DNA of 64,000 nt, from positions 932-64,931 of the forward strand of contig JAMCYW010000015.1 in the NCBI GenBank assembly GCA_023473255.1. Reading direction: 5' to 3'. Shown here in pieces: positions 42,137 through 42,565 of the stretch (its first letter is position 1; every line of letters starts with the position of its first letter). A program made the translations under genes and the position numbers. Source of the DNA: Candidatus Marsarchaeota archaeon. Its GTDB lineage: Archaea; Micrarchaeota; Micrarchaeia; Micrarchaeales; Micrarchaeaceae. The notes beneath the pieces were generated by a model, which worked only from the letters and a program-made list of their open reading frames with translations, did no database searches and had not been told where the DNA came from.

Positions 42137-42565
42137 TTGTTTTTAAACTTATCTATAGATGGTGGTTATACGGCTTCAAAAAAAACTGGCAACACAAAAA
42201 TAGAAAAAAACACATTGCAACCTAGTTCTGCTGGCAACATAGAGTTCCCAAAGATAAAAATACAGAATATAGTTGTGAGCGCAGACCTTCACGCTGTAAT
42301 AGACCTATATGCGCTTTCGAAGGAAGTGAAAGCCGTAGACTATGAACCAGAGCAGTTTCCTGGAGCTATATTCAGGATTGCTGAACCTAAAGCAGTTATA
42401 ATATTATTCAAGAATGGAAAGATGATATGCACCGGAGCCAACACTGAAGTAAATATAAGAAAGGTACTGGCATACGCAGCAGGAATAATGTCAAAGTACG
42501 TGATATCGCTAAATGCTCCTGCATCTGAAGGCAAGCCGCAAAGGCCGTCAAAGCAGGTCAAATGA
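42137..42565 (+). CDS. TATA-box-binding-protein homologue with a single TBP repeat
   Basis: [61 protein letters not shown] is one TBP repeat. There is no second repeat and no in-frame ATG/GTG upstream of the repeat (TTG at 42137 or 42215). Confidence 0.6.
   Translation: [142 protein letters not shown]

Follow-up and report, generated by a model that had tools for sequence, protein, structure and literature searches.

A 64,000-nt stretch of an archaeal genome (Candidatus Marsarchaeota archaeon, Micrarchaeaceae; assembly GCA_023473255.1, contig JAMCYW010000015.1, positions 932 to 64,931), hereafter the window, carries a gene that encodes a single repeat of the TATA-binding protein (TBP). The open reading frame (ORF) at 42137-42565 on the plus strand is real and comprises 142 aa when counted from the TTG at 42137. 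Residues 39-121 of this 142-aa frame match the TBP repeat PF00352 once, with 85.4 bits (cut-off 22.9; E 2.5e-24), which bears out the single repeat recognized in an earlier sequence-only reading of the window. Identity to either lobe of the solved archaeal TBPs (1MP9, 2Z8U, 1AIS) is about 45-50%. The gene, named TBP-A, is enclosed by the start of a FAD-dependent, geranylgeranyl-reductase-like (GGR-like) gene at 42099 and the stop of a GT4 glycosyltransferase gene at 42570, both on the minus strand, so that a second repeat is impossible at this locus, as that reading had also concluded. TBP-A is therefore not a two-repeat protein; it has one repeat per polypeptide, and the same holds for about 100 orthologues. 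The features of the locus, in window coordinates, are as follows.

40987-42099, minus strand: GGR-like gene, divergent from TBP-A.
42100-42160, no strand: AT-rich divergent promoter region between the GGR-like gene and TBP-A; it contains the TTG at 42137.
42113-42118 (TATAAA) and 42122-42133 (TATATATTTATA), no strand: TATA-like elements of the promoter region, from the sequence.
42137-42139, plus strand: TTG used in most public gene calls (142 aa), rejected as start.
42161-42166, plus strand: Shine-Dalgarno sequence GGTGGT; GGTG at -9 to -6 from the start codon is near-invariant in 66 ACG loci.
42170-42172, plus strand: ACG, putative start codon, conserved, in frame, 3 nt past the Shine-Dalgarno sequence.
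42170-42565, plus strand: TBP-A coding sequence as re-annotated from this putative start, 131 codons and a TGA stop.
42170-42250, plus strand: Lys-rich N-terminal tail, residues 1-27, predicted to be disordered (predicted local distance difference test, pLDDT, of AlphaFold2, AF2).
42215-42217, plus strand: TTG used in one public gene call (116 aa), rejected as start.
42251-42499, plus strand: single TBP repeat, S1-H1-S2-S3-S4-S5-H2 (Pfam, AF2, Foldseek).
42500-42562, plus strand: C-terminal tail with a VISLN(P/A)P motif (a short predicted strand), then a basic end (orthologue conservation, AF2).
42570-43712, minus strand: GT4 glycosyltransferase gene, convergent with TBP-A and 4 nt past its stop.

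Fold and conservation of TBP-A

In the AF2 model, for which 78 half-TBPs were used, the core has a pLDDT above 93 and the element order S1-H1-S2-S3-S4-S5-H2, to which a short extra strand (VISL; residues 111-114 of the C-terminal tail) is added with moderate confidence. In a Foldseek search of the PDB the top 44 matches were all TBPs, most of them with a root-mean-square deviation (rmsd) of 0.8-1.3 A over about 84 residues, which corresponds to one lobe. The monomer prediction that the earlier reading had proposed as a check thus yields one TBP lobe. The N-terminal tail has a pLDDT below 50 for residues 1-13, with means of 41 and 49 for the two 10-residue blocks over residues 1-20, and the orthologous tails are 12 to 37 codons long, always in frame.

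The domain is under very strong purifying selection. Over its 84 codons the ratio of nonsynonymous to synonymous substitution rates (dN/dS) is 0.008-0.03 for most A-type pairs and 0.08 at most, with similar values for pairs of the second type of half-TBP, TBP-B, described below. The N- and C-terminal tails evolve faster, their dN still being lower than dS (N-tail dN/dS 0.14-0.41 within the genus). The reading frame is intact at 97 of 97 distinct orthologous loci from about 100 genomes.

Conservation extends to the residues by which a TBP is recognized. In the numbering of the 131-aa product the key residues are N33, V35, E59, E61, F63, F80 and T88. Invariant columns among the 78 half-TBPs include N33, V35, Y58, E59, P60, Q62, F63, P64, G65 and F80; E61 is conserved in at least 90%. 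By alignment N33, V35, F63 and F80 correspond to N69, V71, F99 and F116 of yeast TBP, which we take to be the S1 DNA contacts and the two DNA-kinking Phe residues. The acidic stirrup YEPEQFPG (YEPE-x-FPG) is kept as well and, by the same alignment, is presumably the stirrup that binds transcription factor B (TFB); TFB binding itself is predicted from the sequence. A VIS(L/V)N(P)P motif recurs in the C-terminal tail of the A-type orthologues in the window gene's own family, the Micrarchaeaceae.

The neighbourhood of TBP-A, with the order GGR-like gene, TBP-A, GT4 and SRP54, is conserved too. The GGR-like gene lies 5' of TBP-A at 67 of 80 related loci, and 69 of the 80 have a GT4 match, which is 3' of TBP-A at 58. 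Which of the two TATA-like elements serves the GGR-like gene and which serves TBP-A is something we infer.

Two half-TBP genes and their origin

The source genome is a Micrarchaeota metagenome-assembled genome (MAG) of 618 kb in 36 contigs, 83% complete. Its close homologues and 80 related loci are assigned by their source names to Micrarchaeota / Micrarchaeaceae, which puts the genome in that group. It contains exactly two TBP-repeat matches, each in a short frame, one on contig C36 (the window gene, TBP-A) and the other on contig C8. The latter, TBP-B, is a single-repeat gene of 108 aa (C8:3666-3992, minus strand) with an ATG behind the Shine-Dalgarno sequence AGGTGT. A two-repeat TBP was not found in this 83% complete genome; the search for a canonical TBP and for a lone second repeat that the sequence-only reading had suggested ended with no canonical gene and one lone repeat, that on C8. 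The genome has one TFB gene (G000:C8:7913-8437, plus strand; 389-aa open frame), about 4 kb from TBP-B.

The same complement recurs among the Micrarchaeaceae. Two separate single-repeat genes are present in 23 of 24 relatives of a first sample. In a phylum-wide sample of 301 genomes, each at least 85% complete, one or more TBP matches occur in 71 of the 72 genomes of this family, two in nearly every case. Three single-sequence genomes of relatives each contain two single repeats, no more, at distant positions, and lack a two-repeat TBP: Ca. Micrarchaeum sp. A_DKE (NZ_CP060530.1, from a cultured organism and titled complete), OY970071.1 and CAVWJC010000001.1, the last two being one-contig or one-chromosome MAGs. 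The one-contig genome G012 has the same two single repeats.

The only canonical two-repeat TBP in a bin of the same genus (L003, G001:C43, 1207-1764, plus strand) was rejected as Nitrososphaerota contamination on the basis of exact sequence identity, the identical protein being found on Nitrososphaerota contigs of up to 353 kb. GC content was uninformative for flagging the canonical-TBP contigs of the bins G001 and G029 as contaminants. The G029 contig, of 3.7 kb (L068, G029:C77), encodes a long-branched two-repeat TBP of 191 aa, which may be a contaminant or a genuine additional gene; the bin belongs to the sister family and contains A- and B-type half genes as well. Three separate single-repeat TBP genes occur in a few genomes of the phylum-wide sample, G112 and G128 for example. 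Many sister-family genomes, one-contig ones included, have only one single-repeat gene; in the phylum-wide sample there are whole families with one single-repeat gene only and other families with canonical TBPs of 190-220 aa.

The relationship of the two genes was examined in a tree of 105 repeats over 84 columns. All 70 single repeats of the two families cluster apart from the canonical N and C repeats (Shimodaira-Hasegawa-like approximate likelihood ratio test, SH-aLRT, 80). Within this cluster the A clade, which holds the window gene, has an SH-aLRT of 99 and a long stem of 0.64, and the B group is short-branched (SH-aLRT 97). Each Micrarchaeaceae genome in the tree contributes one A and one B repeat. 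At 14 of 14 other Micrarchaeota loci the TBP gene, canonical or single-repeat, has the same neighbours as TBP-B, among them rpl21e and a DUF655-like gene. TBP-B therefore occupies the ancestral TBP locus and is, by position, orthologous to the normal TBP gene; TBP-A is a divergent paralogue and a dispersed copy.

From the signature xCTGA the sequence-only reading had assigned TBP-A to the N-terminal repeat type. This assignment finds no support, since Cys precedes TG(A) in both repeats of canonical Micrarchaeota TBPs. When canonical TBPs are scored with the A profile, the C repeat exceeds the N repeat in 29 of 34 proteins, the mean difference being 11.5 bits; with the B profile no preference for N repeats is seen (+0.2 bits). 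Trees in which A is joined to the N repeats or to the C repeats gave p values of 0.09 and 0.30, respectively, in the approximately unbiased (AU) test, so that neither is rejected.

Two histories can be derived from these data. In the favoured one the TBP locus either lost one repeat or kept a single-lobe state, and a later duplication of B gave rise to A. It is favoured because the single repeats group together in the best tree, because genomes with B only are widespread and because B lacks N-repeat character. In the less favoured history a two-lobe gene was split by fission, its N half staying in place as TBP-B and its C half being relocated as TBP-A; the two would then be obligate heterodimer partners. 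That this is how the pair arose we regard as doubtful. Several observations agree with it: family members do have a second half gene, TBP-B occupies the ancestral locus, the A profile prefers C repeats, a clade of A with the C repeats is not rejected by the AU test, and at position 3 of the repeat alignment, just before S1, A has Ile as in C repeats and B an aromatic residue as in N repeats. They are opposed by the clustering of all 70 single repeats away from the canonical N and C repeats and by the absence of an N preference in the B profile. In addition, the halves are adjacent in no genome seen, and in the sister family and further Micrarchaeota families many genomes that are complete or nearly so have a B-like gene on its own, so that B works without A. 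As to the split TBP that the earlier reading had listed among its options, the second single-repeat gene does exist, on C8; yet this gene is a paralogue, lies at the ancestral locus and is often alone in relatives, and the AU test neither establishes nor rejects a clean fission into N and C halves. Lobe-level paralogy seems to have arisen more than once in the Micrarchaeota.

The start codon

The TTG codons at 42137 and 42215 are, as the sequence-only reading had stated, the only in-frame ATG, GTG or TTG codons 5' of the repeat. Its statement that the gene has no ATG start also holds, but neither TTG appears to be the start; instead, we infer from the conserved sequence that translation begins at the ACG at 42170 and yields a product of 131 aa. 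The ACG, 3 nt past GGTGGT, would be read as Met by the initiator tRNA.

The first indication lies in the Micrarchaeaceae orthologues, in which G-V/G-x-T-A-K recurs upstream of the domain with no canonical start; at the DNA level it reads GGT G[AGT]T NNN ACG. A frame-unbiased search covered all three frames within 159 nt 5' of the domain at 97 distinct A-type loci, after 80 further loci had been added to the first set. The unit [GT]GTG[AGT]T-NNN-ACG is present at 60 of the 97 loci and is in frame with the domain in all 60 and in other frames in none, where chance predicts one third. When a 4-nt spacer is allowed as well, the codon is ACG at 66 loci, ATG at 25, ATA at 3 and GCG at 1, with 2 loci unresolved. 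The ACG position is occupied by ATG in G012 and G016 and by ATA in G011. An in-frame stop immediately precedes the ACG at four loci (L054, L048, L031, L056), and at least 7 loci of the family have no ATG, GTG or TTG between the upstream stop and the domain. The consensus over the ACG loci is tGGTGaTT.A-ACG-GCa; the next codon encodes Ala, Pro or Ser, just as TBP-B proteins begin with MAK or MPK. At the 66 orthologous loci the ACG is preceded, at a distance of about 36-50 nt, by a TATA-like element (TATTTAAAGCTTTC / TATATAAACCTTTC), a spacing that implies a short leader. TBP-A of the cultured Ca. Micrarchaeum A_DKE likewise has GGTGGTTCA-ACG. At locus L113 (JAKATK010000007.1) the corresponding codon is GCG (GGTGATTTT-GCG), which perhaps reflects a sequencing error or else another non-canonical start.

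Controls point in the same direction. A Shine-Dalgarno sequence followed by ATG was found in 39 of 40 B-type genes, the ATG of TBP-B having the same Shine-Dalgarno spacing, and the A genes of the sister family start with ATG. The sole B-type gene without ATG, L057 (G020:C2), reads AGG GTG TTT TTT ACG, in which the start is either the GTG inside the Shine-Dalgarno-like site or the ACG. In the source genome a strict combination of Shine-Dalgarno sequence, 3 nt and ACG opens an ORF of at least 60 codons only at TBP-A; 24 of 31 GGTG[AGT]T+3nt+ATG sites open long ORFs. The putative ACG start is a feature of the A paralogue in one family only (66 of 97 loci). With a loose Shine-Dalgarno definition, genome-wide enrichment of ACG starts in the source genome was not significant (4 ACG candidates without an earlier canonical start, 2-4 for ACA, ACC and ACT), and ACG use there looks gene-specific or rare.

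A special tRNA for ACG was looked for with ARAGORN, which without its intron mode gave only 14 tRNAs and nothing informative. Its calls included a 90-nt 'tRNA-Asn(ATT)' at 63594-63683 (minus strand) and, on contig C19, a tRNA whose anticodon has four bases; these are probably mis-modelled intron-containing tRNAs. The 3' end of the 16S rRNA, which contains the anti-Shine-Dalgarno sequence, was searched for in the assembly and not found. Two other ORFs of the genome have unusual openings. A membrane-transporter-like ORF of 430 codons at 59824-61116 (minus strand) has no ATG, GTG or TTG in its first 18 codons and an in-frame stop 5 codons upstream; GGTGGA is followed by ATT ATA ACG, and the ORF may start at the ATA or the ACG. 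Outside the window, a PIN-domain-like ORF (C12:2038-2466, minus strand) has GGGTGA-CTAA-ACG directly after a stop, with a GTG 3 codons further on that makes its start ambiguous.

An alternative is that translation starts at an annotated TTG, 42137 or 42215, and that the ACG is merely an internal Thr codon. Gene callers choose these codons, and the four genomes of the genus share TTG 42137. The alternative is nevertheless unlikely. TTG 42137 lies inside the TATA-rich promoter stretch and lacks a Shine-Dalgarno sequence; beyond the genus it has no equivalent, and stop codons intervene there. TTG 42215 also has no Shine-Dalgarno sequence upstream and is replaced by CAG (L024) and TCG (L025) in two species of the same genus. 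The unit of Shine-Dalgarno sequence and ACG, by contrast, is conserved across the family and always in frame. The putative ACG start would account for the wrong start that gene callers give TBP-A and for its NCBI label, 'hypothetical protein'.

Function, precedents and meaning

TBP-A is read here as a functional one-lobe TBP, the divergent one of two half-TBP paralogues in Micrarchaeaceae that lack a two-lobe TBP, with a probability of roughly 0.7 on the evidence of sequence and predicted structure. The TBP saddle needs two lobes, the S1 strands of which pair to form a ten-stranded DNA-binding sheet. One lobe is half a saddle, and half proteins must therefore dimerise. That two chains do so is suggested by the absence of a two-lobe TBP from the single-sequence genomes. 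Of the three readings that the earlier, sequence-only work had offered, a half-TBP that dimerises is the best supported; its single-lobe state may be ancestral or may result from secondary shortening.

In the proposed mechanism TBP-A would most likely form one half of a dimeric DNA saddle, together with TBP-B or with itself, by pairing of the two lobes through their S1 strands into a ten-stranded sheet. Since each lobe keeps the Asn/Val pair, both kinking Phe residues and the acidic stirrup, such a dimer could bend TATA-box DNA and take up the single TFB on either of its sides. The polarity of archaeal promoters is set by contacts of TFB with the B recognition element (BRE), archaeal TBPs themselves being nearly symmetric, so that a symmetric or a two-chain TBP is workable. 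The weak ACG start may keep TBP-A scarcer than TBP-B, in which case most of TBP-A would be found in A:B heterodimers. An A:B heterodimer, in effect an asymmetric TBP of two chains, is our guess; A:A homodimers that serve as an alternative TBP are the second possibility. We propose only tentatively, and with less than even expectation, that the sole TATA-binding factor of these organisms is an A:B heterodimer of separately encoded, diverged lobes, the ratio of which is set by the conserved near-cognate ACG start.

Several points weigh against this interpretation. With a source genome that is 83% complete, the lack of a canonical TBP there rests on the relatives. TBP-A is missing from 8 of 15 sampled sister-family genomes, which have B only; TBP-A is thus not universally required, and B:B homodimers must suffice in these organisms. 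The choice between heterodimer and homodimer is a guess. The genus-conserved, in-frame TTG at 42137 may give rise to a longer minor form. Finally, those supplements of the A_DKE transcriptome paper that were examined contain no TBP, PF00352 or TATA-box rows (PMC8975820).

Alternatively, TBP-A could be a low-abundance modulator that caps or poisons TBP-B, or that binds another partner or nucleic acid, and thereby tunes global transcription. A modulator might be expected to have the long stem branch of the A clade (0.64), the A-specific conserved residues in H1, S3-S4 and H2 and the family-specific VISLNxP tail; the weak start codon implies a low dosage, and many sister-family genomes dispense with TBP-A. 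Yet the DNA-contact and kink residues and the TFB-binding stirrup are all invariant in A, which is unexpected if binding of DNA and TFB had been abandoned, and we give this role little credence. Still less probable is conversion of the ACG to AUG by C-to-U editing of the mRNA, as in plant organelles. It is suggested by analogy only, ACG being one C-to-U change away from AUG and ATG replacing ACG in some lineages; we know of no mRNA C-to-U editing in archaea, ATA and GCG occur at the same position, and near-cognate initiation is simpler. A decaying paralogue or pseudogene, the third option of the sequence-only reading, is suggested by the lack of a canonical start codon but can be dismissed in view of the purifying selection on the domain (dN/dS mostly 0.01-0.03, the lowest pairs reaching 0.008), the intact frame at 97 loci, the conserved synteny and the invariant functional residues.

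Canonical archaeal TBPs have two PF00352 repeats per chain and about 180-190 aa (S. acidocaldarius 1MP9, P. woesei 1PCZ/1AIS, M. jannaschii 2Z8U). The half-TBPs resemble them in the fold of each lobe (rmsd about 1 A), in an identity of about 45-50%, and in the DNA-contacting Asn/Val, the Phe pair and the YEPEQFPG stirrup. They differ in having one lobe per chain, encoded by two paralogous genes at different loci, and TBP-A differs further by its Lys-rich N-tail, its VISLNxP C-tail and its putative ACG start. A conserved second TBP-type gene, which could provide alternative or specialised promoter recognition, is also known from haloarchaeal TBPs and from eukaryotic TBP with its TBP-related factors. 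Those paralogues are complete two-lobe proteins, whereas here the paralogy is at the level of single lobes and would permit mixed dimers. The halobacterial TbpA coexists with a full-length TBP. Monopartite TBP-domain proteins, namely halobacterial TbpA and diverged Thermococcales proteins of about 95 aa, have been described (Brindefalk et al. 2013, PMC3597702). All monopartite cases in Table 3 of that study, the Thermococcales ones among them, are listed beside a full-length TBP of the same genome, and the Thermococcales group is very diverged from TBP (PMC3597702). The Micrarchaeota half proteins share with them the stand-alone single TBP domain (PMC3597702), but they are highly TBP-like, no two-repeat TBP accompanies them in the single-sequence genomes, and TBP-B resides at the TBP locus. 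Beyond this study (PMC3597702), a literature search revealed no paper on TBPs of DPANN or Micrarchaeota that are split or consist of one half or one repeat.

As regards the start codon, the literature search found no paper that describes ACG starts in archaea. Near-cognate starts are known elsewhere, ACG in eukaryotic and viral mRNAs, such as that of VP2 of adeno-associated virus (AAV), and AUU in bacterial infC. NCBI table 11 does not list ACG as a start codon. Like the AUU of infC and the ACG of AAV VP2, the ACG of TBP-A would be a weak, conserved start at a regulatory gene, in a good ribosome-binding context and with a likely low or regulated output. A ribosome-profiling study of H. volcanii left near-cognate sites aside (PMC7261190). 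A conserved ACG start would widen the accepted set of archaeal start codons and, if the proposed ratio control is true, would be a naturally occurring example of regulatory ACG initiation in an archaeon.

On the present reading a whole lineage, including the cultured Ca. Micrarchaeum A_DKE, would run on one-lobe TBPs. TBP is the textbook example of a pseudo-symmetric protein and is thought to derive from a homodimer by duplication and fusion. To our knowledge, the functional TBPs studied to date all carry their two lobes on a single chain. The A and B lobes offer a natural comparison of homodimer and heterodimer. Such a lineage makes several questions testable: whether promoters can be recognized by a symmetric or two-chain saddle, how polarity comes about through TFB alone, and what benefit is gained from asymmetry of the lobes. 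If the A:B heterodimer exists, it would be a living two-chain intermediate, or a reversal, of the duplication-fusion path that led to the universal pseudo-dimeric TBP.

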